Positions 3,756 through 47,320 of a stretch of DNA of 64,000 nt are shown in pieces; within the stretch, counting starts at the first letter, position 1; every line of letters begins with the position of its first letter. Source of the stretch: Thermoplasmata archaeon (lineage in GTDB: Archaea > Thermoplasmatota > Thermoplasmata > Lutacidiplasmatales > UBA184); the NCBI GenBank assembly GCA_021844945.1, contig JAKBSJ010000002.1, positions 230,965-294,964 of the forward strand. The letters are read 5' to 3'. The position numbers and the translations under genes were made by a program. The notes under the pieces are model-generated. The model made no database searches, was not told the origin of the DNA, and saw nothing but the letters and a program-made list of their open reading frames with translations.

Positions 3756-4112
3756 TCAGCCCGACGACCCGCTCGTTTTCCGCCGGATCCAGCTCTTCGC
3801 GCCGACGAGAGTTCCCCAAGTGCGGATCGTGCGGATCGACCAACGACCTGCGGGGCGCGAGGTGGCGTTCCATCGGGCGCGAGCGAACGTCATCGTATGC
3901 TGATCGACGACGACGATCGCGCGACGGGCATCCGACCGTATCACGCGGTAGCTGAGCGATGGAGGCGACGGCGAACCGATGTCATCAAGGACCCGACGCC
4001 ATGCATCGGGGGACCCTACCGGGACGAGCTCCCCCGCCACCTCGATCCCGAGGTAGCGGGGGCGGGAAGGGGTTCGCTTACCGGACGAGGTCGATGACTT
4101 CCTCGGACTCAC
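3756..4112 (-). CDS. rnp2: RNase P protein component 2 (Pop5/Rpp14 family)
   Basis: 118-aa ORF. RYLGIEV...RRAIVVVDQHTMTFARARW...IRTIRTWGTLVGAK follows the archaeal Pop5 pattern (RYIAF.V ... I.T..vSGTi...). The GTG start overlaps the ftsZ 3' end by 35 nt. Confidence 0.6.
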   Translation of the reverse strand: MSPRKSSTSSGKRTPSRPRYLGIEVAGELVPVGSPDAWRRVLDDIGSPSPPSLSYRVIRSDARRAIVVVDQHTMTFARARWNATSRPAGRWSIRTIRTWGTLVGAKSWIRRKTSGSSG

Positions 4113-5211
4113 CGGCCGCGTAGCCCCCCTTCTGGCCGAGGAGGCTGGTCGCGCGGACTCCCGTGATGATTAGGAGCACCTTGATGGTGTTCTCCATCTC
4201 GGGGGACGACTCGACCGAGCACCCCCAAATGATGCGGGCGCGCTTGGAGATCTTGCCACCTACGAGCGACGCGGCCTTCTCCGCCTCGGAGACCGTCATC
4301 GTCGGTCCGCCGATGACGCGCACGAGCGCGCCGGTGGCGTCCTTGAGCTCCACGCTGCCGAGCAGCGGGCTCGTCAGGGCTTCGGTGACCGCTTCGTTCA
4401 CCCGGTCGGTCGCGCTCTCGCTCTCGCCGAGGCCGATCAGGGCGACCCCGCCGTCCTTCATGACCGTCAGGATGTCGGCGTAGTCGAGATTGACCAGCCC
4501 GGGGCGCGTCACGATTTCGGCGATCCCTTTGATCGCGGTCATCAGGACTGCGTCCGCGAGTTTGAACGCCGCATCGAGCGGCATGCGCGGGACGAGCTCG
4601 AGCAGCTTGTCGTTCTGGATGACGATCGTCGTATCGCAGACGCGGCGCAGGCGCTCGAGGCCGTCGCGGGCCTGCTCCATGCGCGCCGTCCCCTCGCCGG
4701 CGAACGGAAGGGTGACGACGCCCATCGTGAGCGCGCCGCTCTCCTTCGCGAGACGCGCCACGAGGTGCGCGGAGCCGGTCCCGGTTCCACCGCCCATCCC
4801 GGCGGTCACGAATACGATATGAGCTCCCTGGATGAATTGTCGGATCTCTTCCTCGTTCTCCCGCGCCGCCTCTTCGCCGATCTCGGGGCGAGCGCCGGCG
4901 CCCAAGCCCTTGGTGGCCCGGCGGCCAATGAGGATCTTCCGAGGCGCGTGGATGGTGAGAAGGTGCTTCGCATCGGTGTTGATGGCGCACATCTCCGCGC
5001 CTTGGATGCCTTCCTCAACGCAACGGTTGATCGTGTTCGATCCGCCGCCTCCGCACCCGACGATCCGGATGTTGACCTTCAACGTCTCCGCTAGTTTCGC
5101 GAGCTCCGCGTCGTCCGCGCTCGCGTACGTCGGAGCATCGGCCTTCTTCTCCTCGACGAGGGCCTGGTCGTCCTGGTGCTTCGCGATCGCTTCCTGAATG
5201 ATGGATTTCAT
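4078..5211 (-). CDS. ftsZ: cell division GTPase FtsZ
   Basis: It has IVGCGGGGSNTINR, the tubulin signature GMGGGTGTGSA and NTDAKHL. A GGAG sits about 10 nt upstream of the ATG. Confidence 0.95.
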   Translation of the reverse strand: MKSIIQEAIAKHQDDQALVEEKKADAPTYASADDAELAKLAETLKVNIRIVGCGGGGSNTINRCVEEGIQGAEMCAINTDAKHLLTIHAPRKILIGRRATKGLGAGARPEIGEEAARENEEEIRQFIQGAHIVFVTAGMGGGTGTGSAHLVARLAKESGALTMGVVTLPFAGEGTARMEQARDGLERLRRVCDTTIVIQNDKLLELVPRMPLDAAFKLADAVLMTAIKGIAEIVTRPGLVNLDYADILTVMKDGGVALIGLGESESATDRVNEAVTEALTSPLLGSVELKDATGALVRVIGGPTMTVSEAEKAASLVGGKISKRARIIWGCSVESSPEMENTIKVLLIITGVRATSLLGQKGGYAAGESEEVIDLVR

Positions 5212-5531: not shown

Positions 5532-6917
5532 CTAGGGGCGTCGGCGCAGTACGACCGCGATCGCTCCCGCCGCGACGGCCGCTACGACCACACCTACGAC
5601 AATCCAGGCGGTCGTCGAGCTCTCGAACATCGATGGCGGCAGGCTCGAGGTACTGCCGGACGAGCAGGAGCCTATCTGGAGGCAGGCGGCGGTAGTTCCC
5701 GCCGAGCTAGCGGTCATCGGGTGCGCGTCCTCCGTCTGAGGGGCGATCCCGTTCTGGGCAAAGCCCGAGACGCCTGAGGCGTCCGTCGCTGCCGCCGAGA
5801 ACGTCACGCCCGACATCGGGTCGCGTACGCTGCCACCGGACGAGACCAGGAGGTACGTCGGACCGAGCGAAGCGCTCGCGCTGGCGAACGCCACACTGGA
5901 CCACGACCCACCCCAACCCTGACCCCACGCCCTCGCCGACGCCGCGCCGTCGACCACGTACGGTCCGATCATCTCGAGATTCCGCGTACTGAGACCAAAC
6001 CGTACGATTGCGGCATGGTCTCCGTCGATATGACCCCAGACCGAGCCGCTACGCCCGACGAGGGTCACGTTGCCAGACAGGGGGCCGATCGAGCCGTTGA
6101 CGCCGCCGGTCGAGGTTCCCGAGATGTGCGGGAGCGAGACGTTGATCGACCACTGGGCGGCCCACGCGCCGGCGAGGCTGTACGCGGCGATGCTGGACCA
6201 CAGCTCGCCCCGAGTCAGGTTCCCGGTCGGGTAGAGTCCCAGCGCCGGGTTGAACGCGACGTTCGAGTTCGAGGCGTAGGTCGCGTCCGCCACCACCGAG
6301 TACGTGCGGGGCGTTGGCGGGGTCGCATTCGTACTCGTGGGTTGGACCATGACGTACATGGCCTCGGAGTCGTGAGAGCGGCTTTGCGTGGCCGCGTTGA
6401 TCAGTCCGATCGCCGTGACCGGCGTGCCAGTCCGGTTCTCCCCTTCGAAGCGGGACGATCCGTTGTACACGGTGACGGTCGCGGTGTCGGTCAGGTTCGC
6501 CCAGCTATCATGGACCTCGGAGGCAACGTAGGTGATGTTGGCTGTCTCGACCGGGGCCGAACAGTTGGGCCGGCAGAATTCGAGGTGGAAAAAGATCCCG
6601 ACGGTCTCTTGATAGTGGACCGTGGTGACATTGGCGCTCACGTTGGTAGTGGTTTCGTTCACGACGAACCCCTCGCTCGCATTGCCGTAGTACACGCCAC
6701 CGAATACGGTTCCGTTGAACGTCGTGTTGGTGACGTTACCGTATGACCCCGACGCCCCGCTCCCCACCGACGAGGGGAGCGGCACTGCCTGGGCCGCGGG
6801 GTTACCTCCGAGCCCTAGGGCCGGCGCCACGAACAGGCTCGCAACGAGAACCGCGAGTACCGTACCCACGACCAACGGGCCGCGAATCGTCGCTCGTAGC
6901 GCGGAATGTGTCGACAT
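5532..6917 (-). CDS. secreted, membrane-anchored surface glycoprotein candidate
   Basis: It has an N-terminal signal/TM segment (GPLVVGTVLAVLVASLFVAPALG) and about 18 N-x-S/T sequons (NVTNTTFNGT, NASEG, NETTTNVSANVTT and others). A Ser/Thr-rich stalk leads to a C-terminal TM helix followed by RRRP. The start is taken at Met17 of the ORF. Confidence 0.6.
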   Translation of the reverse strand: MSTHSALRATIRGPLVVGTVLAVLVASLFVAPALGLGGNPAAQAVPLPSSVGSGASGSYGNVTNTTFNGTVFGGVYYGNASEGFVVNETTTNVSANVTTVHYQETVGIFFHLEFCRPNCSAPVETANITYVASEVHDSWANLTDTATVTVYNGSSRFEGENRTGTPVTAIGLINAATQSRSHDSEAMYVMVQPTSTNATPPTPRTYSVVADATYASNSNVAFNPALGLYPTGNLTRGELWSSIAAYSLAGAWAAQWSINVSLPHISGTSTGGVNGSIGPLSGNVTLVGRSGSVWGHIDGDHAAIVRFGLSTRNLEMIGPYVVDGAASARAWGQGWGGSWSSVAFASASASLGPTYLLVSSGGSVRDPMSGVTFSAAATDASGVSGFAQNGIAPQTEDAHPMTASSAGTTAACLQIGSCSSGSTSSLPPSMFESSTTAWIVVGVVVAAVAAGAIAVVLRRRP

Positions 6918-12000: not shown

Positions 12001-12423
12001 CGGTCGGTCGATGCGGCGGAAGCGATCGCGAGCATACTGACCACGCACTTCCTGCCCGACGCGATGGGAAACCTGCGCAGCTTCGCGACGCAGAAGTTCC
12101 GGTGCAAGACCTGCGGAACGAGCTACCGACGACCTCCTCTGTCGGGCCGATGCACCGCCGTCGGGCGCGGATCGAGCCCGTGCGATGGGGAGCTCCTGCC
12201 CACGGTTTACGAAGGCATGATCCGGAAGTACCTCGCCCTGAGCGCGCACCTGGGCGCTGCCGAGGGGGTGCCTCCGTACCTGCGCCAGCGGGTCGAGATC
12301 CTGACGCAATCGCTCGCGACCCTATTCCCCGGTTCGGACGAGCAAACGACGCTGGAGTCGTTCGCGGCGATCGACGCCACCGGCCCGTCGCACGACAACC
12401 CCCAAATACGCGAGCCCCGCTAG
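9058..12423 (+). CDS. polC: DNA polymerase II (PolD) large subunit DP2
   Basis: 1121 aa with a GTG start. The N-terminus MEAYFRAIEGEIERGYSVAERARSLGIDPE..IPRAQDMASRVE matches the DP2 N-terminus. Zn-finger clusters are present (CPACSRSSVWPRCSCG; KFRCKTCGTSY..CTAVGRGSSPCDG). The length is consistent with no intein. Confidence 0.95.
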   Translation: MEAYFRAIEGEIERGYSVAERARSLGIDPETRPEIPRAQDMASRVEKLLAHLGIDGIADEIRALARTMPREEVAVAIARRLASDTSRPGSVARRVEAALRVGLAILTEGILVAPLEGLAEVHLVDGPEGRFIELYYAGPIRAAGGTAQALSVLLADVIRRDLHLAAYRASREEIGRYQEEIPLYKHFQHLQYVPTPEEISTVVRHVPVCISGEATEGDAEVSAFRNLDRVKTNGIRGGACLVIAEGMCQKASKIKRIVDKLAIPDWEFLDDLGHSTAHEEDGSVAKYLADAGVGGRPILAHPNRPGGFRLVYGRARTTGLAACAINPATMVLLRHFVAVGTQLKLEYPGKAAAMGLCDLLEGPIVELSDGTVTAVHDVDRAEALLPQIRRIVDLGEILVAYGEFLENNRALVPGAYTVDWHEEELRAAGAPATEGAGAESFAASLALARRYRVPLHPRWLLFWHDLTSAEIRALAEQVERSGAWRDGRLELPWDEVWRELLARLGFLHTRGPTGQVLGEPETSEALVGTLGLEIVGGLLVRKTLLDPVDPDPLAYVSRLAGATVMPRSPSRVGARVGRPEKAYQRKMQPNVHGLFPVGEAGGPSRSVGEAVRRAMKGQPVQTQLGVRLCPACSRSSVWPRCSCGAHTVANGTTIQVAFPVDELWGDALQRLRLNRVPQVKGVKGLTSVGHTPEPIEKAILRAEHGISVYQDGTARFDLMDLPLTHFRPIEIGTDIARLRELGYTQDWAGRPLERGDQLVELRPQDIVVARSCGRYLLHLSQFLDDELVHLYGLSPFYRARVPEDLIGAVVAALAPHTSGAVAGRIIGFSEAEACFAHPIFHAAKRRNCDGDEDSVTLLLDALLNFSRAYLPETRGAMMDKPLVLTTRLDATEVDKEAHHLDLNDRYPLEFYRAAARRANAKDVEALFDTVGHRLGSAHSLDLYAFTHDTHDIARGPVRSAGRDGRAMSDMVEQSVTLMTQIRSVDAAEAIASILTTHFLPDAMGNLRSFATQKFRCKTCGTSYRRPPLSGRCTAVGRGSSPCDGELLPTVYEGMIRKYLALSAHLGAAEGVPPYLRQRVEILTQSLATLFPGSDEQTTLESFAAIDATGPSHDNPQIREPR

Positions 12424-12432
12424 CGCGCCTGC

Positions 12433-12532
12433 GGGCTTGTGGGGTAGTCTGGACTATCCTGTTGGCCTTCGAAGCCAACGACCTGGGTTCGAATTCGCGG
12501 TGGAATCCGTGACGAAACTCCCAGCAAGCCCG
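12433..12532 (+). tRNA. tRNA-Arg (anticodon UCG) with a 25-nt non-canonical intron (12494..12518) in the T-loop, position 59/60
   Basis: Hand fold. Acceptor stem GGGCTTG (12433-39) pairs with CAAGCCC (12525-31), with discriminator G12532. U8, A14, G18G19 and A21 are present. D-stem is GGGT/TCCT. Anticodon stem TTGGC/GCCAA carries loop CTTCGAA (UCG). T-stem CTGGG (12483-87) pairs with CCCAG (12520-24). The spliced T-loop is TTCGAA+T. The intron region forms an hBHBh' motif (details in the first finding). No CCA is encoded. Confidence 0.85.
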
Positions 12533-12602: not shown

Positions 12603-14261
12603 ATGGACGGCTCTCCCCACCGGCCGGTCGACGCGCCGTCTCCGCTCCCCGCGTCGACCCCGGGTCGCGTGCGCGTCGTCGGGCCGCCCGTGCCGCCAGG
12701 GGATGGTGTGTTGACGCCGGACGCTCTTCGCTTCGTCGGCGAGCTCGCGGCGCGCTTCGAGGACCGCCGCCAAGAGCTCCTCGCCCACCGCGCACGGTTT
12801 CACGAGGACCTGGTCCGAGGGCATCGGCCGTCCTTTCCCGAAGCGACGCGAGCGATCCGAGAGGGAGTGTGGAGGGTCGCGCCTCCTCCGGACGATATCG
12901 TCGACCGACGTGTCGAGATCACGGGACCCACCGATCGGCGGATGGTGATCCACGCGCTCAACTCCGGCGCCCGCGTCTACATGGCGGACTTCGAGGACTC
13001 GCACTCTCCCGTGTGGGCACGGACGGTCGAGGGACAAGCGAACCTCATCGACGCCGTCCGAGGAACGATCGAGGACGTCGGTCCCGACGGGGTACGTCTC
13101 ACTCTCGGAGATCGCCCGGCCGTGCTGTTCGTCCGTCCTCGCGGTTGGCATCTGGACGAACGCCACGTAACGGTTGACGGCCGGCCGGTCTCGGCGAGCC
13201 TCTTCGACTTCGGAATTTACTTCTTCCATACCTCGCACGAACTGGTCGCGCGGGGCCACCGCCCCTACTTCTACCTGCCCAAGATCGAGCATTTTCCCGA
13301 GGCCGAGCTCTGGAACGACGTCTTCCGGTTCAGCGAGGGCCGCAGGGGGTTCCCGTGGGGAACGATCCGCGCGACGGCCCTGATCGAGACCCTGCCCGCC
13401 GTTTTCGAGGCGGAGGAGATTCTGTACGCCCTTCGCGAGCACTCCGCCGGGCTGAACTGCGGTCGCTGGGACTACATCTTCAGCTTCCTCAAGCAGTTCC
13501 GGGACGACGCGTCGGTGATCTTTCCCGATCGCTCGGAGCTCACGATGGATCGGCCCTTCCTGCGCGCCTACGTCCGCCACCTCATCCGGATATGTCACCG
13601 ACGCGGCGCGCACGCGATCGGTGGAATGGCGGCGCAGATCCCCCTCCGGTCGGACCCCTCGGCGAACGAGGCGGCGATGGCGGCCGTCCTCGCGGACAAG
13701 GAGCGCGAGGTGGCCCTTGGCCACGACGGTACGTGGGTCGCCCACCCGGGGCTCGTCGCGGTCGCGCAACGCGCCTTCGACGCCCGGATGCCCGGGCCCA
13801 ACCAGATCGACCGCCGCCCTCTCCCCGAGGCCGTCCGTCCCGAGGATCTCCTCGAGATCCCCGTCGGACCCGTGACCGAGGACGGGATCCGAACGAACGT
13901 CCGGGTGGCGGTTCGCTACCTCGAGTCGTGGTTGCGAGGGGTCGGATGCGTTCCGATCGATCACCGCATGGAAGATGCGGCCACGGTCGAGATCGCTCGC
14001 GCCCAGCTTTGGCAGTGGGCCCATCGAAGGGTCCACCTCGCTTCGGGCGAAACGGTCACGGTCCCCTACATCGCCGAGGCGATCGCCACGGAGGCGCAAC
14101 GCCTGCGCGCGGAGCGGACCCGGGAGGGGGGGCCGACCTCCACGATCGCGGCGGCCGCGGGTCTGATGGAAGGATTGGTGGCGAGCGCGGCCTTCCAAGA
14201 GTATTTTACCAACTCGGCCTACCGTGTACTGGAGCCGACGGTTCCGGCGGACCCCTCATGA
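12603..14261 (+). CDS. aceB: malate synthase A
   Basis: 552 aa. It has [38 protein letters not shown] and [10 protein letters not shown], which are classic malate synthase A blocks. Confidence 0.9.
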
Positions 14262-15607
14262 AGGACCCGAAAGAACTCGCGGACGACTGGTCCCAGGCGG
14301 CGCGCTGGAAGCGCACGCAGCGACCGTACCGCCCCGAGGCCGTCGCGCGCCTGCGAGGTTCGATCCGGATCGAGCATACGCTCGCCGACGTCGGCGCGCG
14401 TCGGCTCTGGCAACTGCTCGAGAACGAAGAGTACGTCCCGGCGCTTGGGGCGATGAACGGGAGCCAGGCCGTCCAGATGGTGCAGGCGGGCCTCCTTGCC
14501 ATCTACGCGAGCGGCTGGCAGGTCGCGGCCGATGCGAACGACGCGGGCCAAACGTACCCGGACCAGAGCCTTTACCCCGCGCTCAGCATGCCGACCTTGG
14601 TTCGTCGGATCAATAATGCCTTCCGTCGCCAGGACGAAAAGCAGCACGCGTCCGGTGCGGGCGCCATCTACTGGTACGCTCCGATCGTCGCCGACGCGGA
14701 AGCCGGGTTCGGCGGCACGCTCAACGTCTTCGAGCTCACCAAGGCGCTGATCGAGGCCGGGGCCGCCGGCCTGCACATCGAGGATCAGCTCGCCTCGGTG
14801 AAGAAGTGCGGGCACATGGGGGGCAAGGTCCTCGTCCCGACGCGTGAGTTCAACCAGAAGCTATGGGCGGCCCGCCTCGCCGCCGACATCCTGGACGTCC
14901 CTACGGTCATCATCGCGCGCACCGATGCCCACTCCGCGAAGCTCCTGACGAGTGACGTCGATCCCCGGGATCAGGAGTTCATCACCGGGGAGCGTACGAC
15001 CGAAGGATTCTTCGCGATCCGCCCGGGGATCGACTCGGCGATCGCCCGCGGGATCGCCTACGCTCCGTACGCCGACATGCTCTGGTTCGAGACGTCGGGC
15101 CCCGACCTCGACGAGGCCCGAGCCTTCGCGGACGCCGTCCACGCGAGGTACCCGGGCAAGCTGCTCGCCTACAACCTCTCTCCGTCGTTCAACTGGCGTC
15201 GCCGGCTCGGCGAGAAGGAGATCGGCCGATTCCAGTCGGACCTCGCCCAGCTCGGTTACAAGTTCCAGTTCGTCACGCTCGCGGGATTCCACGCCGTGAA
15301 CCTCTCGGCGTTCCGGCTCGCGACGGATTACAAGACCCGGGGGATGCTCGCCTATTCCGACCTCCAGGAGGAGGAACTCGCCGTCGAGGGATCCGGGTAC
15401 CGTGCGGTCAAGCACCAGAGCTTCGTCGGGACGGACTACTTCGACGAGGTCGCCCAGGTCCTTTCCGGCGGACTCACGTCGACGCTCGCGCTCGAAGGCT
15501 CGACCGAGGCCCAGCAGTTCCGTTCGTCCCCTGCGGGGAAGGCCAAGGATCCGGTGGATGGGAGCCCGAGGCCGACCCGCGGCTCGGCTCCGGGGACCAC
15601 GACGTAG
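14258..15607 (+). CDS. aceA: isocitrate lyase
   Basis: Internal ATG at 14258 in ORF 13355..15607. It has [12 protein letters not shown], the ICL signature KKCGHMGGK, and LAGFH. The ATG overlaps the aceB TGA (ATGA). Confidence 0.9.
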
Positions 15608-15926: not shown

Positions 15927-16444
15927 CGGCCGCCTCCGCGCGCCGCGGCCCGGGGCACGGTCTTCGCGGCCGGCGGGACCGCCGCCCCTTGATCGATGAG
16001 CGTCTGGAGATGGTTCACGGTCTCGCGATACCGTCGCAGCGCGTTCTGGGCGTGGGCTTCGGTGAAATCCCATGCGCGGGCGATGTTGCCGTAGCGCAGC
16101 CGGTAGGCCTTGCGCCCCCCGCCATGGTCCCGCCGGCTCGGCACGCCGACCTCCTCGAGAAGGTCGAGCGACTTGAGCTTGTTGATGTGCCGATAGACGG
16201 TGGGCCTCGTCGTCTTGAGCGCTACGGCGAGTTCGTCCGGTTGCCACGCCCGGCTGGGCTCCCCTAGGAAGCACTGACGCACCAGCCGATAGGCAAGACT
16301 CTCGCCCACAGGCCCTTCGCTACCGCGGCCCTCCTCGCCGTTCGGGAGGTACCCGACCAGGCGAAGGAACTCTCCGAGCACCTCGTCGACATCCGCGATC
16401 GGAGTGAGCGGCGTGCTGTACCGCAGCGAGAGATCGAACCCCAT
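15923..16444 (-). CDS. winged-helix (ArsR/TrmB-like) transcriptional regulator
   Basis: The HTH is ELAVALKTTRPTVYRHINKLKSLDLLEEV. The start is taken at the internal Met (MGFDLSLRY). It is divergent from the molybdoenzyme operon. Confidence 0.65.
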   Translation of the reverse strand: MGFDLSLRYSTPLTPIADVDEVLGEFLRLVGYLPNGEEGRGSEGPVGESLAYRLVRQCFLGEPSRAWQPDELAVALKTTRPTVYRHINKLKSLDLLEEVGVPSRRDHGGGRKAYRLRYGNIARAWDFTEAHAQNALRRYRETVNHLQTLIDQGAAVPPAAKTVPRAAARGGGR

Positions 16445-23326: not shown

Positions 23327-24247
23327 GTGCCGATGTCGGTTGAGGAGGAGGTGCGCCGGCTGAAGGAAGAACGCAATGCCGTGCTGCTCGCCCACAACTA
23401 TCAGCTCCCCGAGGTCCAGGACATCGCGGACTACGTCGGCGACTCCCTCTACCTTTCCCGGCAGGCGATGGAGACGGACCGGCCGGTGATCGTCTTCGCG
23501 GGGGTGCGGTTCATGGCCGAGACCGCCAAGATCCTCAACCCGACGAAGACGGTCCTCCTTCCCGATCTCACGGCCGGCTGCAGCCTCGCCGACGCGATCA
23601 CCGCGGAACAGCTGCGCACGTGGAAGTCCGAGCACCCCGGCGCCGTGGTCGTCTCCTACGTCAACACCTCGGCCGAGGTGAAGGCGGAGAGCGACTATTG
23701 CTGCACGAGCTCGAACGCGGTCCGGGTCGTCAACTCGATCCCGGCCGATCGGGAGATCCTCTTCCTCCCCGACATGTTCCTCGGCGACTACGTGCGCACG
23801 CAGACCGGCCGCACGTCGCGCACGATGCACCTGTGGCCAGCGGACTGCCACGTACACGGCCGGATTCGGCCCGAGATGATCGCCCACCTGCGCTCCGAGC
23901 ACCCCGGCGCCCCCCTGATCGCCCACCCCGAGTGCGGGTGCGCTTCCGAGTCACTCCCCCACGTGGACCAGGTCCTGTCGACCGACGGCATGGTCCGTTT
24001 CGCGAAGGAAACGAAGGCGCCCGAGGTCCTGGTCGCGACGGAGGTCGGTATCCTGCACCGGATGCGGCAGCTCAATCCCACGACCCGGTTCACTCCGGTC
24101 GACGCGGGCGCGATCTGCCCGTTCATGAAGAAGACCCATCTCGCGGACGTGCGGGACGCGTTGAAGCTCAACCGCTACGAGATCGACGTGCGGCCGGACG
24201 TGGCCGAGCGCGCGCGCCGGGCGCTCGAGCGCATGGTCGCGTCCTGA
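23327..24247 (+). CDS. nadA: quinolinate synthase
   Basis: It has LLAHNYQLPEVQDIADYVGDSL.LSRQA, VRFMAETAKILNP and HPEC. Confidence 0.9.
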   Translation: MPMSVEEEVRRLKEERNAVLLAHNYQLPEVQDIADYVGDSLYLSRQAMETDRPVIVFAGVRFMAETAKILNPTKTVLLPDLTAGCSLADAITAEQLRTWKSEHPGAVVVSYVNTSAEVKAESDYCCTSSNAVRVVNSIPADREILFLPDMFLGDYVRTQTGRTSRTMHLWPADCHVHGRIRPEMIAHLRSEHPGAPLIAHPECGCASESLPHVDQVLSTDGMVRFAKETKAPEVLVATEVGILHRMRQLNPTTRFTPVDAGAICPFMKKTHLADVRDALKLNRYEIDVRPDVAERARRALERMVAS

Positions 24248-25917
24248 CCGGGGCGCGCGGACGCCGGCGATTCGAGGTCCGCGAGGCGGAGCGCGTTGCC
24301 CACGTCGGACGCTTTCGCCCAGGCCCGCCGCGCGAACCCGAGCGAGATCGGTCCGGTCGGATCTTCGGGCGGTCGGTCGAAGCCCGTGGCGACGTGAACG
24401 GCCCCGCCGCGCCGCAACAACTCGCGCGCCCCGTCCGAGTCGAGCCGTTCTGGGCCCGGTCCCACCTCGATCCAGAGGCCGTGGGAGGCTGCGAAGGCGA
24501 GCCACCCCTCCCAACGCTCTCGCTCCGCCGCATCGTCCGGCGCCGGTCCGAGGTGGCTGACGAGGCGCCAGCCGGTTCCGAGACGTTGTGTCGCCGGAGG
24601 TGGGGGTCCTTGGGCTCGCAGCACTCGGAAGTCGACCTCTCGGTCCGCCTCTCCGTTCGTGACGGTCGCGAATTCTCCCCCGACGAGCACCCGAGCCTCG
24701 CCGGGCCGTCGCCGCTCCCGACGGACGGCGAGGCGCTGACGGGTCTCCGCCGGGAGCTCGGCCGGATGGCCCTCCTCGTCCGTTCCGTGCACGAGGATGC
24801 CCACGTAGTCGAGCCGACGCCGTCGGGCCTCGGCGAGAGCTCGATCGAGGTCGTCCGGGGTCGCATCGGCCGCCAGGCGACCGTGCCAATCCCCCCGGAG
24901 GTCCGCGAGCTCGACGAGCTGAGGGACCGAATCCGTGGTGGCGAGGTCGATCTCGCCGCGGTCCTCGCGCATTTCGGGCGGGATCCAGCTCAGGCCGATG
25001 GCGTCGTAGACATCGTACTCCGTTCGGCCGGCGATCCGCCGCTCGCCGCGATAGACGCCGTACTCATTGACCTTGAGCCCGAGGTCCTTGGCGAGCGTGC
25101 GCAATCGCACGTTGTGGTCCTTGGAGCCGGTGAAATAGACGAGCGCGGCGCCGTAGGACTCGAGGTCGACCACCCGCACGTCCACCTGCAGCCCGCCCTC
25201 GAGGACCACGGTCATCTTGGTGTCGCCCCGCAGCAGGACGTCCAGGACGTCGGGTCCCTGGGCGACACGGTCGAAGACCTCCGTGGACCGCCGGCTCCCC
25301 ACCAGAAGGTCCACGTCGCCGATCGTCTCCCGGCATCGACGCAGGCTCCCGGCGATCTCGGCCCGTTCCTCCCCCGTCAGGCGCTCGCGGATCGCGGCGA
25401 CCAGCCGCTGGGCCCGAGGCCATGCTTCGGCGATCGGGGTGCGGGCTCCGGCCGGCCGGGCTCCCGCGGCCTCGCGGAACTGGGCGATCTTGCGCTCGCC
25501 GAACCCTTTCGCTCCGGACAGCCGCCCCGCGTCGATCGCCGTTCGGAGTGCCGAGGGGCTCTCTACCCGGAACTCGATCCAGAGGCGTCGCGCCGTCTTA
25601 GGGCCGATGCCGGGTAGCCGCATCAGCTGGACGACGCCGGTGGGTATCTCGGTCCGGAGCTGATCCAGGTATCCTAGGCGGCCGGTGGCAAGGAACTCGG
25701 TCAGCTTCTCCGAGATCGCTTCGCCAATCCCCGGGATGGCGCGCAGTTCGCCGCGATCGGCGTACTTCGAGAGCGGCTCCGGAAGGGACTCGATGGAACG
25801 AGCGGCCCGGCGATACGCCTCGGGCTTGAACTGCTCCCCCTGGAGATCGAGCAGGTCGGCGATCGACCGAAGGAGCTCGGCAGCTTCCGTGTTAGAGACC
25901 ATGGCCGAAAGGCGCAT
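24175..25917 (-). CDS. polX: family X DNA polymerase with C-terminal PHP domain
   Basis: The N-terminus NTEAAELLRSIADLLDLQGEQFKPEAYRRAARSI and HhH motifs (IPGIGEAISEKL; LPGIGPKTARRL) are present, with a PHP-like C-half. The 3' end overlaps nadA by 73 nt (convergent). Confidence 0.85.
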   Translation of the reverse strand: MRLSAMVSNTEAAELLRSIADLLDLQGEQFKPEAYRRAARSIESLPEPLSKYADRGELRAIPGIGEAISEKLTEFLATGRLGYLDQLRTEIPTGVVQLMRLPGIGPKTARRLWIEFRVESPSALRTAIDAGRLSGAKGFGERKIAQFREAAGARPAGARTPIAEAWPRAQRLVAAIRERLTGEERAEIAGSLRRCRETIGDVDLLVGSRRSTEVFDRVAQGPDVLDVLLRGDTKMTVVLEGGLQVDVRVVDLESYGAALVYFTGSKDHNVRLRTLAKDLGLKVNEYGVYRGERRIAGRTEYDVYDAIGLSWIPPEMREDRGEIDLATTDSVPQLVELADLRGDWHGRLAADATPDDLDRALAEARRRRLDYVGILVHGTDEEGHPAELPAETRQRLAVRRERRRPGEARVLVGGEFATVTNGEADREVDFRVLRAQGPPPPATQRLGTGWRLVSHLGPAPDDAAERERWEGWLAFAASHGLWIEVGPGPERLDSDGARELLRRGGAVHVATGFDRPPEDPTGPISLGFARRAWAKASDVGNALRLADLESPASARPGQDATMRSSARRARSATSGRTSIS

Positions 25918-29928: not shown

Positions 29929-32739
29929 TCACGAGCATCCGCTCGTCGCGCCGCACGTCGGACACGCGTAGCACGTGCCCGATCGGACCATGATGCCGCC
30001 GCAGACCGGGCAGCTCGGGGAGTCCTCCATGGCCCGACCGCTTCCCTCGTCGGCCGCCGAAGCCTCGAACGAGTCGAGCGGCTTGATCTCGAACTTGACG
30101 ACGGTGCTGGGCGGCGGGGCTGCGGCCGCCGTCGCATGCCCGTTGCCGTTCCCGTTACCCTCGGAATGGCCCTCGAGCCCGATCGAGCGGCGATCGTTCT
30201 CGGTCAGGAACTCGAGCGACAGCCACCGCGCGACGTAGTCGGGGATCGACTGCGCGAAACGAATCTTCGGGTTGTTGGTCGCCCCCGCCGGCTCGAAGCG
30301 CATGTGCGCGAGCTTTCGGACGAGGTCCTTGAGCGGCACTCCGTGCTGGAGCGCCATCGACATCGAGATCCCGAGCGAGTCCATGAGACCGTTCACGGTC
30401 GATCCCTCCTTCGTGACGCGGAAGAAGATCTCGCCGGGGCGACCGTCCGGGTACAGGCCGACGGTCACGTAGCCATCGTGCCCGCCGACGCTGAAGTGGT
30501 GCGTGATCGCCCGCCGCTCATCCGGAAGCCGCTCGCGGACCGGGGTGCGGACGCCCCCCGGACCGACCGGCCCACTGGGGGCGCGACCGTGGGTGGTGTC
30601 GTAGGGCTGCGAAGCCTTGCAGCCGTCGCGGTACAGCGCGACCGACTTGATACCGAGACGCCAGGCCTCCAGGTAGATCTTCTCGATGTCCTCGACCGTA
30701 GCGTCGTTCGGGAGGTTGATGGTCTTCGACGCGCCGCCGGAGAGGAACGGCTGCACCGCGCCGAGCATGCATAGGTGGCCCATCGGGGCAATCGTGCGAT
30801 GGCCGCCCGGAGGGGCGAGCGCGCAATCGAAGACAGGAAGGTCCTCCGGGTCGAGTCCGGGGGCTCCCTCGATCGTTCCCTTCTCCTCGACGTGCTTCAC
30901 GATCTCTCGGATCTCGCTCTCCGAGTAGCCGAGGCTCGAAAGGGCGTCGGGGACGGTCCGGTTGACCATCTTCATCACGCCGCCACCGACGAGGTTCTTC
31001 ACCTTCACGAGCGAGAGCTCGGGCTCGAGCCCGAGCGTGTCGCATCCCATGAGGAGCCCGATCGTCCCGGTCGGGGCGATGACGGAGATCTGGGCGTTGC
31101 GGTACCCCCAGAGCTCGCCCGCCTTCTTCGTGTCGTGCCAGCGGTCGACCGCGGCATTCACGAGCGGCGTCAGGCGCCCGTCGTTGAGCGGGATCCGCTC
31201 GGCGGCGGCCCCGTGCTTGCCCATCACGCGGAGCATCGGGGCCCGGTTCTTGTCGAATCCCGAGAACGGTCCCATGCGCTTGGAAATCTCTGCGCTCGTG
31301 TGGTACCCCTCGGCCGACAGCAGCGCCGAGATCGCCCCCGCGAGGGTGCGTCCGGGGTCGGAGTCGTAGGCGAACCCGTAGTGCATGACGAGCGAGCCCA
31401 GGTTCGCGTATCCGAGCCCGAGCGGGCGGTAGTCGTGGGAGTTCCGCGCGATCGCGGCGGTCGGGTAGCTCGACGCGTCGACGAGGATCTCCATCGCCAC
31501 GATCATCGTGCGCACGGCGCGTCGGAAGAGTTCGATGTCGAACTGTCCCTTCGCATCGAGGAACTTCATCAGGTTGATTGACGCGAGGTTGCACGCCGTG
31601 TCGTCGAGGAACAGGTACTCGCTGCACGGGTTGGAGGCGTTGATGCGGCCGGACATCGGGCTCGTGTGCCAGTCGTTCGTGATGTCATCGAACTGGACTC
31701 CGGGGTCGCCGCAGCGCCAGGCCGCGTAGGCGAGCTTGCGCCACAGCTCGCGGGCGCGATAGGTCCCCGCGACGGCGTGGTCGGTCCGGTTGATCGTCTT
31801 CCACTCCTGGTCGTGGAGGACCGCTTCCATGAATGAGTCGGGGATGCGGACCGAGTGGTTCGCGTTCTGGTAGGCGATCGAGGCGTAGGCGCTGTTGGGG
31901 TCGGTCCCGTCGAAGTTGGGGCTGTAGCCCTCGCGGATGAGGGCGTAGGCCTTGTCCTCCTCCTTGACCTTGCACTCGATGTACTCCTCGATGTCGGGGT
32001 GGTCCATGTTCAGAATCACCATCTTCGCCGCGCGGCGGGTCGTGCCGCCGGATTTGATCACGCCGGCCATCGCGTCGAAGGCCCGCATGAAGGAGACCGG
32101 CCCGCTCGCGATTCCCCCGCCCGAGAGGTGTTCGTGGCTGCCTCGCAGGGAGGAGAGATTCGTCCCGGTGCCGCTCCCTCCCTTAAACAAGCGGCCCTCG
32201 CTCGTCGCGAGGGCGAGGATTGAGTCCATGTCGTCGGTGACGGACTGGATGAAGCACGCGGAGCATTGCGGCGGCTCCCGAACGCCGACGTTGAACCAGA
32301 CGGGGCTGTTGAACGCCGCCATCTGGTGGACCATCAGGTAGGAGAGGCTCTCCTCCAGCGTCGTCGCCTCCTCGGGAAGGTCGAAGTAGCCGAGCGCGAG
32401 CCCCTGCTGGGCGATCCAGTGGCAGACCCGACGGATCATCCCGTCGACGCTGGACTCCCGACGGCCCTGGATGATCCGGAAGTACTTCGACGCCGCGATG
32501 TTGACCGAGGTATCGGACCAATCGGTCGGGGCGCGGATCCCCTTCTGCTCGAAGATGACCTTGCCCTCCGCGTTCTTGATCAACGCGTCGTGGGACCGCC
32601 ACGTCACGGTATCGAACGCCGTCTTGCCCTTCGGCACGAGGCGCGGGACGGGGATGGATTCCTCCCCGTAGGTGCGGGCCGAAGGGCCCGCGTCTTCCGC
32701 GATGGGGATGGGGGATGCGCGCTTTTTCGATGCAGCCAT
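29929..32739 (-). CDS. nrdJ: class II (adenosylcobalamin-dependent) ribonucleotide reductase
   Basis: It has the NPCSEYLFLDDTACNLASINL active-site block, SNMGGG-type regions and a C-terminal Zn ribbon (CPVCGGIMVRSGTCYACPTCG). The start is taken at MAASKKR. A GTG 60 nt upstream is also possible. Confidence 0.9.
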   Translation of the reverse strand: MAASKKRASPIPIAEDAGPSARTYGEESIPVPRLVPKGKTAFDTVTWRSHDALIKNAEGKVIFEQKGIRAPTDWSDTSVNIAASKYFRIIQGRRESSVDGMIRRVCHWIAQQGLALGYFDLPEEATTLEESLSYLMVHQMAAFNSPVWFNVGVREPPQCSACFIQSVTDDMDSILALATSEGRLFKGGSGTGTNLSSLRGSHEHLSGGGIASGPVSFMRAFDAMAGVIKSGGTTRRAAKMVILNMDHPDIEEYIECKVKEEDKAYALIREGYSPNFDGTDPNSAYASIAYQNANHSVRIPDSFMEAVLHDQEWKTINRTDHAVAGTYRARELWRKLAYAAWRCGDPGVQFDDITNDWHTSPMSGRINASNPCSEYLFLDDTACNLASINLMKFLDAKGQFDIELFRRAVRTMIVAMEILVDASSYPTAAIARNSHDYRPLGLGYANLGSLVMHYGFAYDSDPGRTLAGAISALLSAEGYHTSAEISKRMGPFSGFDKNRAPMLRVMGKHGAAAERIPLNDGRLTPLVNAAVDRWHDTKKAGELWGYRNAQISVIAPTGTIGLLMGCDTLGLEPELSLVKVKNLVGGGVMKMVNRTVPDALSSLGYSESEIREIVKHVEEKGTIEGAPGLDPEDLPVFDCALAPPGGHRTIAPMGHLCMLGAVQPFLSGGASKTINLPNDATVEDIEKIYLEAWRLGIKSVALYRDGCKASQPYDTTHGRAPSGPVGPGGVRTPVRERLPDERRAITHHFSVGGHDGYVTVGLYPDGRPGEIFFRVTKEGSTVNGLMDSLGISMSMALQHGVPLKDLVRKLAHMRFEPAGATNNPKIRFAQSIPDYVARWLSLEFLTENDRRSIGLEGHSEGNGNGNGHATAAAAPPPSTVVKFEIKPLDSFEASAADEGSGRAMEDSPSCPVCGGIMVRSGTCYACPTCGATSGCS

Positions 32740-32924
32740 GGGGCCTCTTGGTGGAGGACGCTGGAACCGGGTGGGCAGCGTGCCGGTCCGGAAACCCACG
32801 ATACCCCGCCGCTCTAAGACGCCGTCGCGGACCTACCGGAACGCTCTCGAAGGGAGGGCGTTTCAGCTTCGGCGGTGGGTCGATAGAACGCGGGCGCCAC
32901 GTGGTCGGACACCCGTCGTGAATC

Positions 32925-33589: not shown

Positions 33590-34864
33590 TTAGATGTAAG
33601 GGTCCATTCTCGGCGGAGAAATCCGAATTCCCTGACGATAAATCTGCGCCGGCGCGGACCCGATACGGTACGGGATCTCCTCCGGGGAACCGAGATCATA
33701 GACGAGGAAGTCGGCGGGGCGTCCGAGCGCGATCATCCCGACGCGCCCGGCGACGTCCAGAGCGGCCGCCGCGTTGACGGTCGCCGCGCTGATCGCTTCC
33801 GCCGGCGTAAGATGGGCGCCATAGACGGCGTGAGAGAGGACGAGCGACATCGACTCGACCCACGAGTTCGGCGAGCAATCGCTGCCGAGCGCGACCGGCA
33901 CGCCGGCCCGGACGAGCTCGCGGCCCGGGCTCGGCCGGCTTCCGATCGTGGTGAAAGGAGTTGCCGGCAGCAGGACCCCGATCACACCCGCCCGCGCGAG
34001 GGCGCGCAGGTCTCCGGATCGAGCGGCGAGCAAGTGGTCCGCGCTGCGCGCCCCCAAGCGGGCTGCCAGCCGAGCTCCGCCCGAAGCGACGAACTCGTCG
34101 GCGTGAATCTTCGTACCGAGGCCGAGCGCGATCGCCGCGCGCAGGATCCGTTCCGACTGTTGGATCGAGAAGTATCCGGGTTCGCAGAAGACGTCGCAGA
34201 AGCGAGCGAGCCTCCGCCGCGCGACCTCGGGCAGCGTGCGCCGGACAATCTCGTCGACGTAGGCGTTCGGGCGACGGCGGAAAATCGGAGGGATCGCGTG
34301 AGCGCCGAGGTAGGTGGGAACGAGGTGCGCGCCGCGACGACGCCCGAGTCGCCGCACGAGCTCGAGGAGCCGGATCTCCCCGGCGTGATTGAGCGCGTAG
34401 CCGGACTTCACCTCGATCGTCGTTGCCCCGCCCGCGGCCATCCGGTCGAGCCGACCGGCGGTCGCGTCCCGGAGCTCGGCGGTCGAGGCTTCCCGGGTCG
34501 TCCGCACGGTGGACAGGATCCCTCCGCCCCGACGGGCAATCTCGGCGTAGCTCGCTCCCTCGACCTTCCACGGAAGCTCGAACGACCGCTCTCCGGCGAA
34601 GACGGCATGCGAATGCGCATCGACGAGCCCCGGGAGGACGGTACCACCCCGCGCGTCGATCCGGCGGCCCTGTCGGGCGAGGCGGACGGTACGCGCGGCG
34701 CCCCGCGACGATCCCACGTACACGAACGTCCCGTCCCGGACCCCCAGGGCAGCATCCCGTACGATCCCGAGATTCCCGAGCGCGGCGCCGGTCCGGGGGA
34801 TAGGTCCCCGCTCGAGGGTCGCCAGCTCTCCGATGTTCGTGACGAGCAGGTCCGCGCGGATCAT
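33590..34864 (-). CDS. hutI: imidazolonepropionase-like amidohydrolase
   Basis: It has PGLVDAHSHAVFAG, TTIEVKSGY, the KIHADEF metal ligands and GSDCSPNS. The start is at the internal ATG 34864 (MIRADLLVTN). Confidence 0.75.
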   Translation of the reverse strand: MIRADLLVTNIGELATLERGPIPRTGAALGNLGIVRDAALGVRDGTFVYVGSSRGAARTVRLARQGRRIDARGGTVLPGLVDAHSHAVFAGERSFELPWKVEGASYAEIARRGGGILSTVRTTREASTAELRDATAGRLDRMAAGGATTIEVKSGYALNHAGEIRLLELVRRLGRRRGAHLVPTYLGAHAIPPIFRRRPNAYVDEIVRRTLPEVARRRLARFCDVFCEPGYFSIQQSERILRAAIALGLGTKIHADEFVASGGARLAARLGARSADHLLAARSGDLRALARAGVIGVLLPATPFTTIGSRPSPGRELVRAGVPVALGSDCSPNSWVESMSLVLSHAVYGAHLTPAEAISAATVNAAAALDVAGRVGMIALGRPADFLVYDLGSPEEIPYRIGSAPAQIYRQGIRISPPRMDPYI

Positions 34865-35763
34865 GGTTGGCGTATGAGATAGGTCATGAGGTCCCGAGCG
34901 GCGATCGTAGAGGGAAAGATCGCGCGCGCCTCGGCCTCGAGCGGTTCGACGTCGGGATACCGGGAGGAGAAGTGGGTCAGGATGAGGGTGCCCACGTTGG
35001 CATCCCGCGCGATCGTCGCGGCCTGGCGAGCCGAAGAGTGGCCCCACTCGTTGGACTGACCCTCGAGTTCGGCGAGGGTCGTCGCCTCGTGGATGAGGAC
35101 GGTCGCATGGGTGGATAGGACGCGTACGGCCTCGGTCGGGGCCGTGTCACCGGTGTACACCACCGACCGCCCCGGGCGCGGGGGCCCCTGGAGGTCCGAA
35201 GGGGCGACCGTTCGATCTCCGACTCGGACGGACTCGCCGGCCTCCAGCTTCCTAAAGTCGGCGCCTCGGATGCCCATCGCCCGGGCCTTCTCGGCGTCGA
35301 ACCTTCCGCGCTTTTCGTTCTCCTGAAGGCGGTAGGCGAGGGAAGGAACGGGGTGCTTCGTCTGTCCCGTCCGGACCGAGTAGTCGTCGAGCACCACCTC
35401 CTCGCCGGCGGACAGCGCGTGAATGTGCACCGGAAACCGCAAGGTGAAGTATCCCATCTGGAGGGCCCGTCCGACCATCTCCTTCGCATCCGGCGGGCCG
35501 TAGACATCGAGCGGCTCGGTGCGGTTGTTCAGGCACATCGTCTGGATGAGGCCCGGTAGGCCGAGGAAGTGGTCCCCGTGGAAATGGGTGATGAAGATGC
35601 GCCGCAGGCGCATGAACGACGCGTTCGACTGGAAGAACTGACGCTGGGTGCCCTCGCCGCAGTCGAACAGAACGCTCTCCCCGTCCATCTGAAGGGCGAC
35701 CGCGCTCGGCGATCGCTCCTTCGTGGGCCACGAGCCGGCGGTCCCCAGGAACGTGAGCTCCAT
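34861..35763 (-). CDS. rnz: ribonuclease Z (tRNA 3' endonuclease)
   Basis: It has MELTFLGTAGSWPT and the metallo-beta-lactamase motif ITHFHGDHFLGLPGL. Its stop overlaps the hutI ATG (ATGA). Confidence 0.85.
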   Translation of the reverse strand: MELTFLGTAGSWPTKERSPSAVALQMDGESVLFDCGEGTQRQFFQSNASFMRLRRIFITHFHGDHFLGLPGLIQTMCLNNRTEPLDVYGPPDAKEMVGRALQMGYFTLRFPVHIHALSAGEEVVLDDYSVRTGQTKHPVPSLAYRLQENEKRGRFDAEKARAMGIRGADFRKLEAGESVRVGDRTVAPSDLQGPPRPGRSVVYTGDTAPTEAVRVLSTHATVLIHEATTLAELEGQSNEWGHSSARQAATIARDANVGTLILTHFSSRYPDVEPLEAEARAIFPSTIAARDLMTYLIRQP

Positions 35764-35868
35764 TACGGGCTCCCACCCCGGCGGGGGTAAAAGCCAGTCG
35801 GACGGCACGTCGATCGGGCCCACCGGCGGGGGAAAAGAGGGAAGTACGGTACCCTATCTCGACCTGCC

Positions 35869-37649: not shown

Positions 37650-37868
37650 ATGGTATCGGATTACGCCGTGCTCGCCGCGGGTATCGCAATCGCCGGAGGT
37701 CTGATCGGGACGGGCATGGCCCAGTCCGGGATCGGCGCCGCCGGCATGGGGATCATCGCCGAGAAGCCCGAGAAGTTCGGTCAGGTGCTCTTCTTCTTCG
37801 TCATCCCCGAGACACTGTGGATCATCGGGTTCGTGCTCGGGATCATCCTGCTGCTGGGGATCCTGTAG
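37650..37868 (+). CDS. atpK: A-type ATP synthase subunit K (proteolipid c)
   Basis: 72-aa two-helix hairpin with a Gly-rich helix 1 and the ion-binding Glu in FFVIPETLWI. Confidence 0.9.
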   Translation: MVSDYAVLAAGIAIAGGLIGTGMAQSGIGAAGMGIIAEKPEKFGQVLFFFVIPETLWIIGFVLGIILLLGIL

Positions 37869-37888
37869 TCCGGGACGAGCGGGGCGCG

Positions 37889-38440
37889 ATGAGCCTGGAC
37901 CGCCTCGTCGAAGAGATTCGCGCCCGAGGCGGGGCCGAGGTCCGCTCCATCGAAGAGAACGCCGCGATCGAGACGGCCAAGATCGCGGCCGATCGGGACC
38001 GACGCATTCTCGAGATACAGCAAGAGTCCGAGCGCGCGGGAACAATCGAGGCGAACCACGAGCGCGTGCAGCGGATCGCCGCCGCGAAGCTCCGGTCCCG
38101 GCAGCGCCTGTACGAGGCGCGCGAGGCGCGACTGAAGTCCTCGCTCGGCGCCACCCACCAACTGCTCGCCGACTACACGACCCAGCCCGAGTACCCGAAG
38201 GTCCTCGAGCGCATGTACCGCTACGCGACCGAGGCCCTCGGCCCGGACGTGCGTCTCAAAGGTCGGGCCGAGGACGCCGCGGCCCTGAAGCGTATCGCTC
38301 CGGGGCGCGTCGATCCGAACCCCGTCCCCATCGTGGGGGGCCTCATCGCCGAGACCCCCGACGGGAGCCGCCAGCTCGACCTCTCCTTCAACGAGCTTCT
38401 GCGCCTGCGCGAAGACCGCGTCCGCGAGCTCCTCGCGTAG
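37889..38440 (+). CDS. atpE: A-type ATP synthase subunit E
   Basis: Internal ATG 37889. It has a long charged N-terminal helix (LVEEIRARGGAEVRSIEENAA...) and a globular C-domain ending GGLIAETPDGS...D.SF..LL. Confidence 0.8.
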   Translation: MSLDRLVEEIRARGGAEVRSIEENAAIETAKIAADRDRRILEIQQESERAGTIEANHERVQRIAAAKLRSRQRLYEAREARLKSSLGATHQLLADYTTQPEYPKVLERMYRYATEALGPDVRLKGRAEDAAALKRIAPGRVDPNPVPIVGGLIAETPDGSRQLDLSFNELLRLREDRVRELLA

Positions 38441-38455
38441 CGGAGGGACGCGCTC

Positions 38456-39535
38456 GTGGCCGGCAGCCCCTATGCGAGCTCCCTCGGCCGCCTCAAAGCC
38501 GACGGCATCTCATTCCTCACGAAGGAGTCATTCGCCCCGTTCCTCTCCGCGACCTCCGTCGACGAGATCGCGAAACAGCTCGCCCTGACCCCGTACGCCT
38601 TCGAGCTGGATCAGGCCCGCGCGGCCTACTCCGGGCTCCCGCTCATCGAAGCGGCGGTCAACCGCACGCTCGTGCGGCGCAACCGACACGCCTTCGACGC
38701 GACGCCCTTCGCCGGCCGCCTCGTCATCGCCGCGTATCTGAAGCGCTGGGACATCGAGAACATCGGGGCGATCCTCGCGAGCAAGGCGCAGAGCCGCCCG
38801 CTCACGCTCTCCGACACCGAGCTCGTCAGCAGCCGCGACATCCCGGCGGGTCTCATCGCGGGTACTCTCTCGCTGGACGACCTGCGCAACCTGGTCGGGC
38901 AACCGACGATCGACGCGGTCATCACCGACCTCGTGCGCTTCGGCTACGGCGGTCCGCTCCTTCCGCTCCTCGAGGAGTTCCGCCGCACGCGGGACATCTT
39001 CCCGTTCCTGCATGCCCTGCGGGTCCAGTACTACGCGGGCCTCCTCGAGGCGGCCCGCTTCTTCCAGGGCGATGAGGGGATCGTCCGCCAGCTCGTCCGG
39101 AGCGAGATCGACGTCGACAACGTGCTCGTGCTCCTGAAGGGGAAGGACTCCGACCTCCCTCTCGAGGACGTCCAGGTCCGGTGGATCGAGGGAGGATCGA
39201 TCCCGGCCCACGAAGCGACCGACCTCTACGCCGCGCGCTCCGTGCCGGAACTCGTCGACCGTCTCTCGCCCCATTACCCCACGCTCTCCGAGGGCAACGC
39301 CGCGTACTCCGAGGCGCACAGCCTCGCGCACTACGACGTCCACCTCCAACGCGAGCGGGCCGCGGCCGAGCTCCGGCGCCTCTCGAGCTACCCGATGAGC
39401 TTGGGCGGGATCTTCGCCTACCTCTTGATCGCCGAGCTGGAACGCTCCGACCTACGGCGCGTGACCTACGGGGTTCTCTACGGCATCCCGTCGGAAAGGC
39501 TCGGCCGCATGCTCACAAACCCCCGCTTCGCGTAG
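38456..39535 (+). CDS. atpC: A-type ATP synthase subunit C
   Basis: 359 aa with a GTG start preceded by GGAGGG. It is all-helical and its position and length are typical of A1Ao subunit C (the V-type d homolog). Confidence 0.8.
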   Translation: MAGSPYASSLGRLKADGISFLTKESFAPFLSATSVDEIAKQLALTPYAFELDQARAAYSGLPLIEAAVNRTLVRRNRHAFDATPFAGRLVIAAYLKRWDIENIGAILASKAQSRPLTLSDTELVSSRDIPAGLIAGTLSLDDLRNLVGQPTIDAVITDLVRFGYGGPLLPLLEEFRRTRDIFPFLHALRVQYYAGLLEAARFFQGDEGIVRQLVRSEIDVDNVLVLLKGKDSDLPLEDVQVRWIEGGSIPAHEATDLYAARSVPELVDRLSPHYPTLSEGNAAYSEAHSLAHYDVHLQRERAAAELRRLSSYPMSLGGIFAYLLIAELERSDLRRVTYGVLYGIPSERLGRMLTNPRFA

Positions 39536-39542
39536 GCCGGGC

Positions 39543-41558: not shown

Positions 41559-41574
41559 CCTCTCCGAATGCTAC

Positions 41575-41943: not shown

Positions 41944-41949
41944 GGGTTC

Positions 41950-42730: not shown

Positions 42731-42755
42731 CGCGCGTCTCCTCCCTCTTCCGTCC

Positions 42756-44168: not shown

Positions 44169-44170
44169 GG

Positions 44171-47299: not shown

Positions 47300-47320
47300 C
47301 GTTGTTCTCCTTGCGTTAGC

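Follow-up and report, generated by a model that had tools for sequence, protein, structure and literature searches.

The interrupted gene and its surroundings

At 12433-12532 on the forward strand of the window, by which we mean the whole 64,000-nt stretch of DNA analysed, lies what reads as a tRNA-Arg(UCG) gene in two parts, separated by a 25-nt insert in the T-loop (Table 1). The first part holds the 5' strand of the acceptor stem, the D-arm, the anticodon arm, a 4-nt variable loop, and the 5' strand of the T-stem, and closes on T-loop positions 54-59 (TTCGAA). Features expected of an Arg-type cloverleaf were found in the sequence and in the ARAGORN drawing—the UCG anticodon, A20, G18 and G19, a T-loop TTCGAAT with A58, and the pair G53-C61—and the D-arm also has A14 and A21; A20 is an identity element for arginine. 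The two strands of the T-stem stand 32 nt apart, compared with the usual 7, and CCA is not encoded, the bases directly 3' of the discriminator being TCC. Deletion of the insert yields a 75-nt sequence that ARAGORN calls as tRNA-Arg(tcg) with a standard cloverleaf. A sequence-only reading of the locus had predicted this spliced product, including its T-loop TTCGAAT; every coordinate that it gave agrees with the sequence, base for base, as does its placement of polD directly upstream, where a gene with all three PolD DP2 domains (Pfam) ends at 12423, leaving a gap of 9 nt before the tRNA.

Table 1. Positions of the interrupted tRNA gene, its elements, and other features of the window
Feature	Position	Strand	Content or basis
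FtsZ gene	4078-5211		
Sub-threshold Rfam match, Pospiviroid RY motif	5681-5744	+	30.5 bits vs 40
Putative promoter	12397..12409	+	Inferred from position and archaeal TATA consensus
Conserved AAC	12397-12399		
TATA-like box	12402-12409		CCAAATAC
5' exon	12433..12493	+	tRNA positions 1-59; sequence, ARAGORN cloverleaf of edited sequence
Acceptor stem	12433-12439 / 12525-12531		GGGCTTG / CAAGCCC, 7 bp
Anticodon	12469-12471		TCG, within loop CTTCGAA
hBHBh' splicing motif	12483..12524	+	Minimum-energy fold and conservation
Outer helix h (T-stem)	12483-12487 / 12520-12524		CTGGG / CCCAG, 5 bp
Central helix H	12488-12491 / 12513-12516		TTCG / CGAA, 4 bp
5' bulge	12492-12494		AAT
Intron	12494..12518	+	25 nt, TTCGCGGTGGAATCCGTGACGAAAC; between tRNA positions 59 and 60
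Inner helix h'	12495-12500 / 12507-12512		TCGCGG / CCGTGA, 6 bp including one G-U
Loop capping inner helix	12501-12506		TGGAAT
3' bulge	12517-12519		ACT
3' exon	12519..12532	+	T60, CCCAG, CAAGCCC, discriminator G73 at 12532
Glyoxylate-shunt pair	12603-15607	+	
Malate synthase	12603-14261	+	
ORF with isocitrate lyase domain	13355-15607	+	Domain start near 14285
Sub-threshold Rfam match, Guanidine-III riboswitch	16204-16259	-	26.9 bits vs 36
Family X DNA polymerase	24175-25917	-	
Class II ribonucleotide reductase	29929-32799	-	With TSCPD domain
Metallo-beta-lactamase protein	34861-35823	-	tRNase Z domain match
A-ATPase gene cluster	~37817-47662		
A-type ATPase subunit A with intein	44171-47299	-	Pfam Intein_splicing, LAGLIDADG_3
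Weak family B polymerase match	50169-52457	+	
Gyrase subunit A	59410-62328	-	

An element with a TATA-like box overlaps polD, falling entirely inside its final codons; counted from the 5' end of the mature tRNA, CAAATA of the box occupies -30 to -25. The element CCAAATA(C/G) occurs at -30 to -24 in the window and in 19 of 21 syntenic relatives, the other two (L019 and L020) having CTTATAC in its place, and its position is kept in genomes where polD ends further upstream. We infer that this element is an archaeal TATA box and the putative promoter of the tRNA gene; a conserved AAC a few bases 5' of it may represent a BRE. Beyond the tRNA, a motif, CTACCGGAAGTA, is conserved 10-25 nt downstream in L006-L013, L019, L020, and others, and reads ...Tyr-Phe-Arg-stop on the opposite strand, where it probably closes a convergent gene absent from the window. 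The window itself carries a glyoxylate-shunt pair directly 3' of the tRNA, a neighbourhood apparently common only to the closest relatives (L018 and perhaps L034).

In the 30 window genes with Pfam support, 1,452 of 14,362 codons (10.1%) specify arginine, and nearly all of these are CGN; the same genes hold 187 CGA codons (about 13 per 1000) and 66 AGA and AGG codons together. Archaea have, to our knowledge, no inosine-34 tRNA-Arg, and CGA decoding therefore needs a UCG anticodon; the interrupted gene is probably essential to its host. No other tRNA-like or interrupted tRNA sequence was found in the window with Rfam at a permissive E-value, nor did the window contain a repeat of the tRNA 3' half or a second copy of the 3' exon. 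There was no sign of an integrated element or of a retro-copy made from the spliced form.

The remaining content of the window agrees with the earlier description of the genome as euryarchaeal-like: in addition to PolD, it encodes FtsZ, a family X DNA polymerase, a class II ribonucleotide reductase, and gyrase subunit A, and includes a weak match to family B polymerases. Separately, an intein with a LAGLIDADG homing-endonuclease domain interrupts subunit A within the A-type ATPase gene cluster. The two sub-threshold Rfam matches, to the Pospiviroid RY motif and the Guanidine-III riboswitch, are probably due to chance in GC-rich DNA.

Precursor fold and recovery of the gene by search tools

The insert and the T-arm together can form a bulge-helix-bulge in which the outer helix is the T-stem itself, and the window sequence has every element of the strict form: two 3-nt bulges on opposite strands, a 4-bp central helix, and flanking helices h and h'. 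In RNAfold, this structure was both the minimum-energy and the centroid structure of the 100-nt precursor (-47.4 kcal/mol; z = -4.28), and none of 200 shuffled sequences folded equally well. Identification of the locus as a tRNA-Arg(UCG) gene with a 25-nt intron at 59/60 and a strict hBHBh' motif, as first proposed from the letters and open reading frames, was borne out by ARAGORN, RNAfold, a profile HMM, and covariation among homologues (the last two below).

The sequence-only reading had also warned that standard tRNA finders might miss the gene, and ARAGORN and Rfam do. ARAGORN called no tRNA in the unedited 64-kb window, and Rfam at its gathering score did not match the gene there; at a permissive threshold, the match to the Rfam tRNA model (RF00005) stopped at a false 3' end (12508) and scored 18.9 bits where the gathering score is 29, a shortfall that is expected because the gene is interrupted. 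By comparison, seven intronless tRNA-Arg(UCG) genes from metagenomes scored 55-62 bits against the same model. The spliced window sequence is identical to five of these seven at 61-67 of 75 positions, and the best of them (67/75) is a gene that itself scores 61.6 bits against Rfam tRNA. When the seven intronless genes were made into a profile HMM, it aligned the spliced form over positions 1-75 with 71.1 bits, and the unspliced form only over positions 1-64 with 61.2 bits. R2, a covariance model made from these genes, scored 61 bits on the window with a false end at 12509, inside the intron, and opened no 25-nt insertion, a match that confirms the predicted 5' exon, though not the full spliced molecule. 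Support for the spliced form thus comes from ARAGORN, the profile HMM, and near-identity to genes that pass Rfam, Rfam having been run on the unedited sequence only.

Similar difficulties recur among the relatives. In 13-14 of them, ARAGORN called a tRNA-Arg(tcg) of 73-91 nt with its 3' end inside the intron (L001-L005, L008, L009, L011-L013, L016, L017, L022, L034), and in 7-8 others it missed the gene altogether. When the ARAGORN intron search was applied to all loci, it returned introns of hundreds to thousands of bases, which are implausible and were set aside. Because ARAGORN and Rfam drop the gene or misplace its end, genomes can seem to be without their only CGA-reading tRNA, and such an apparent loss would distort assessments of tRNA complement and completeness. 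Public annotations of the relatives—widespread archaea of acid soil, peat, and mine sites—may accordingly hold mis-bounded or missing tRNA-Arg(UCG) genes. In archaeal mode, tRNAscan-SE 2.0 seeks non-canonical introns by default (PMC8450103).

Distribution and constraint among relatives

A search with the C-terminal region of PolD recovered 22 loci in metagenome-assembled genomes of Thermoplasmata, 64-97% identical to the query, the next matches, at about 45%, belonging to Hadarchaeota, Bathyarchaeia, and Nitrososphaeria. The interrupted gene lies just 3' of polD in 21 of the 22; the other locus (L015) ends inside polD, and 21 loci therefore cover the tRNA region. In all 21 syntenic genes, the insertion, 23-31 nt long, sits at exactly one site. 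The 5' exon is 93-100% identical to that of the window, and the 3' exon departs from the window sequence in few relatives (for example, the T-stem variant CCCGG in L007). Five of the relatives' genomes are Lutacidiplasmatales (AcS1-67, AcS1-45, AcS5-34, SubAcS13-64, and SubAcS15-67; Table 1 of PMC9287336, which introduced the name of the order), and the nearest relatives of the window are the genomes YS5.bin51, FK1.bin102, and YF1.bin60. [quoted passage not shown] Judged by these sequence relationships, the host is an uncultured Thermoplasmata archaeon of high GC content and a relative of Lutacidiplasmatales. Its GC content had at first hinted at a haloarchaeon, an idea abandoned once the genome matches proved to be Thermoplasmata. 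No tRNA follows polD at four loci from more distant Thermoplasmata (L155-L158; three PolD genes, 46-50% identity), which indicates that the synteny does not extend to outgroups or sister orders.

Metagenomes were scanned with a pattern confined to the 5' exon, and at least 120 stretches matched. In at least 101 of these the gene is interrupted and has the acceptor stem of the window gene, and at least 17 carry an intronless tRNA-Arg(UCG) with another acceptor stem (GGGCCCG, GGGCTCG, or GGGCGCG); two further stretches among the matches listed are broken off by a contig end. Flanks of the intronless genes were AT-richer in those inspected, and we take these genes to belong to other lineages. No intronless gene with the CAAGCCC acceptor strand was present among the matches listed (at least 120 stretches).

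Pooling genomes and the metagenome matches listed gave at least 123 genes with at least 110 distinct introns, which range from 22 to 38 nt with 26 nt the commonest length. Among the matches listed, the central helix is fully paired (4/4) in 109 of 110 distinct introns: its 3' strand is CGGA in 65, CGAA in 40, CGAG in 4, and CGAC in 1, and all of these retain pairing (the variants, which are A-to-G changes, via G-U) except CGAC. The 5' bulge is AAN in 110/110 and the 3' bulge ACT in 104/110 of the introns among the matches listed. The first pair of the inner helix is mismatched in 6/110 of them, and a few relatives therefore depart from the strict form. By contrast with this fixed geometry, the sequence of the hairpin loop and the length of the hairpin drift freely across the set (at least 110 distinct introns).

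To quantify covariation, base pairs were counted in alignments of the genes to R1, a covariance model that represents the precursor. Standard pairs made up 98.7% of cells in the 22 genome sequences and 97.8% in a set of 100 sequences (96 distinct), with 7 of 8 inner-helix pairs changed on both sides in the former and 8 of 8 in the latter. None of 500 shuffles equalled the covariation score in either set, and in a control where the 3' partners were slid by 1-3 columns, only 30-55% (22 sequences) and 30-58% (100 sequences) remained paired. Alignments to R1 are fitted to the model and thereby favour the structure somewhat, but a model-free parse of the 110 introns from the matches listed agrees. 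Changes in the body of the tRNA are likewise compensatory (31:39 and 50:64, each UA or CG). The precursor is thus able to form a strict hBHBh' motif, and this motif has been preserved by evolution. Taken together, frozen exons and bulge-helix-bulge geometry, a compensated inner helix, and a free loop fit the pattern expected of a substrate for the archaeal splicing endonuclease. The distribution is best explained by a single gain of the intron in the ancestor of this order-level clade and its retention since, with constraint limited to the features that the endonuclease (EndA) needs.

We weighed three other readings against these data. The first holds that the insert is retained and that the unspliced transcript works as a tRNA-like RNA whose T-arm is enlarged by an expansion hairpin. 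The extended arm is indeed very stable in the predicted fold, but in that fold the insert pairs with T-loop bases 54-57, which are required for the elbow between D-loop and T-loop and for recognition by translation factors. Nor does an expansion need paired 3-nt bulges set 4 bp apart, an arrangement kept in 109 of 110 variants among the matches listed; fixed geometry combined with free hairpin length and loop is what EndA requires of its substrates (PMC6379350). We regard an unspliced product as very improbable, and we think just as little of the second reading, in which the intron is removed at other junctions or by a route other than EndA and RtcB, such as a shift of both cuts by one base or self-splicing. 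Some encouragement for a shifted cut comes from the first intron base, which is A in 67 of 110 relatives among the matches listed, where a shift would leave the T-loop as UUCGAAA. However, UUCGAAU is the loop of intronless tRNA-Arg(UCG) genes, and in the window only the 59/60 cut rebuilds it because the first intron base there is T. Self-splicing would be hard to reconcile with introns of 22-38 nt, far too short for group I or group II elements with their catalytic cores of at least a few hundred nucleotides, and Rfam found no match to an intron family in the window. Weakest of all is the idea that the locus is a tRNA pseudogene broken by the insertion, CGA being read by a copy elsewhere in the genome: although the gene goes uncalled by ARAGORN and Rfam, its exons are 93-100% identical where the C-terminal region of PolD is only 64-97% so, its stem changes at 31:39 and 50:64 are compensatory, its promoter-like box is conserved, and no intronless gene with this acceptor stem occurs among the matches listed (at least 120), which leaves this reading a negligible chance. 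We therefore consider 12433-12532 to be a functional tRNA-Arg(UCG) gene with a 25-nt archaeal bulge-helix-bulge intron at 59/60, with a probability of roughly 93%.

Proposed maturation and comparison with known introns

If maturation follows the usual archaeal route, the gene's own TATA-like promoter, within the 3' end of polD, would drive its transcription, and the transcript would be trimmed by RNase P at its 5' end and by RNase Z at its 3' end. For the latter step, the metallo-beta-lactamase protein encoded in the window, given its tRNase Z domain match, is likely the 3'-end processing enzyme for tRNA genes without encoded CCA. In the precursor, T-loop bases 54-57 (UUCG) would pair with CGAA of the intron and, with the T-stem and the intron hairpin, complete the strict hBHBh' motif. 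By analogy with the archaeal mechanism, EndA is expected to cut after the second base of each 3-nt bulge (12493|12494 and 12518|12519), and an RtcB-type ligase to join the exons and restore the T-loop UUCGAAU; the predicted exon junction is GGTTCGAA|TCCCAGCAAGCCCG and the predicted spliced-junction sequence GGGTTCGAATCCCAGCAAGCCCG. Since splicing restores the T-loop, the tRNA elbow could not form beforehand, and T-loop modification and docking with the D-loop would occur only after splicing, with CCA added next.

No gene for EndA, RtcB, or the CCA-adding enzyme was found in the 64-kb window, and Pfam gave no tRNA_int_endo domain among the approximately 48 ORFs scanned there. A tblastn search of 1.2 Mb of loci with EndA of M. 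jannaschii (checked against 1a79) returned a sole match, in L129, which was spurious and lay in a molybdopterin dehydrogenase gene. Cluster II Euryarchaeota, including Thermoplasmatales, are reported to have EndA of the alpha'2 type only (PMC5829648), and we assume the same of the host lineage. Besides 37/38, strict bulge-helix-bulge motifs are found in D-loops, T-loops, and acceptor stems, where archaeal EndAs cut them, the (alpha-beta)2 or epsilon2 enzyme being required only for relaxed motifs (PMC6379350). The near-universal strictness of the motif in the clade would fit an endonuclease of narrow specificity.

Whether the intron is more than a neutral relic is a separate matter, and we think it unlikely, counting together the three variants below, that it is a selected, order-wide feature; only if its long retention proved to be selected would the locus point to new biology. 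First, it could disrupt the segment from the T-arm to the 3' end, a frequent attachment site of integrating elements. Second, it could make elbow formation and T-loop modification of the sole CGA decoder dependent on EndA, which, if true, would amount to a maturation checkpoint in a proteome with 10% arginine codons. In a related reading, a lineage of the alpha'2 type may tolerate and long keep a non-canonical intron, and such tolerance, if real, would make the suggested correspondence of intron position with EndA type less secure. Whatever its origin, the set of at least 110 natural variants separates what must stay—both 3-nt bulges, the 4-bp helix between them, and the foot of the inner helix—from loop sequence and hairpin length, which are free.

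A T-arm intron in a genome of this kind had been called unusual from the sequence alone, a description that holds in part. Non-canonical introns are rare in Euryarchaeota, with 25 recorded in 6,970 tRNA genes of 144 genomes (PMC8450103), and one review takes the position that such euryarchaeal organisms have introns only at 37/38 (PMC4090602). On the other hand, such introns had already been counted in Thermoplasmata, with six in three genomes of Methanomassiliicoccales and one in five of Thermoplasmatales (PMC8450103, Suppl. Table S7), and 59/60 is a known site. These earlier Thermoplasmata introns come from the same class of organisms and belong to the same class of feature as the one described here; the table gives counts only, without identity or position. 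In the paper on Lutacidiplasmatales genomes, the word 'intron' is absent (PMC9287336). A tRNA-Arg(UCG) intron at 59/60, fixed across a Lutacidiplasmatales-like clade, was not found described in the literature, and it may already be recorded in resources of the GtRNAdb type; what appears new is its fixation across the clade. It offers a clear example of a non-canonical intron fixed in an order-level euryarchaeal clade.

Introns at 59/60 are numerous in Thermoproteales. They are also found in ARMAN-2, in pre-tRNA-Pro(GGG) with a strict hBHBh' motif and in pre-tRNA-Cys(GCA) with a relaxed hBH motif (PMC3239211). The intron described here resembles those of both groups in its T-loop site and similar size range (PMC3239211, PMC6379350), and in that bases of the T-loop pair with the intron while the T-stem serves as the outer helix. 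It differs in its host, a Thermoplasmata archaeon in which a narrow alpha'2 EndA would be expected, whereas the ARMAN-2 and Thermoproteales hosts have (alpha-beta)2 or epsilon2 enzymes. Here, moreover, the motif is strict in almost every variant and the intron is the sole one seen in its gene and is fixed across an order-level clade, in contrast to Thermoproteales, where tRNA genes with several introns are common, and to ARMAN-2, whose tRNA set is rich in introns.

The closest parallel in architecture is the canonical intron at 37/38, whose geometry is identical, with the T-arm in place of the anticodon arm and the same enzymes presumed to act. In our mapping, 54-57 correspond to 32-35 and the cut after 59 to that after 37, while the 3' bulge lies directly against the outer stem. 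Splicing here would restore the T-loop, where splicing at 37/38 restores the anticodon loop, and an intron at this site does not point to a new mechanism.
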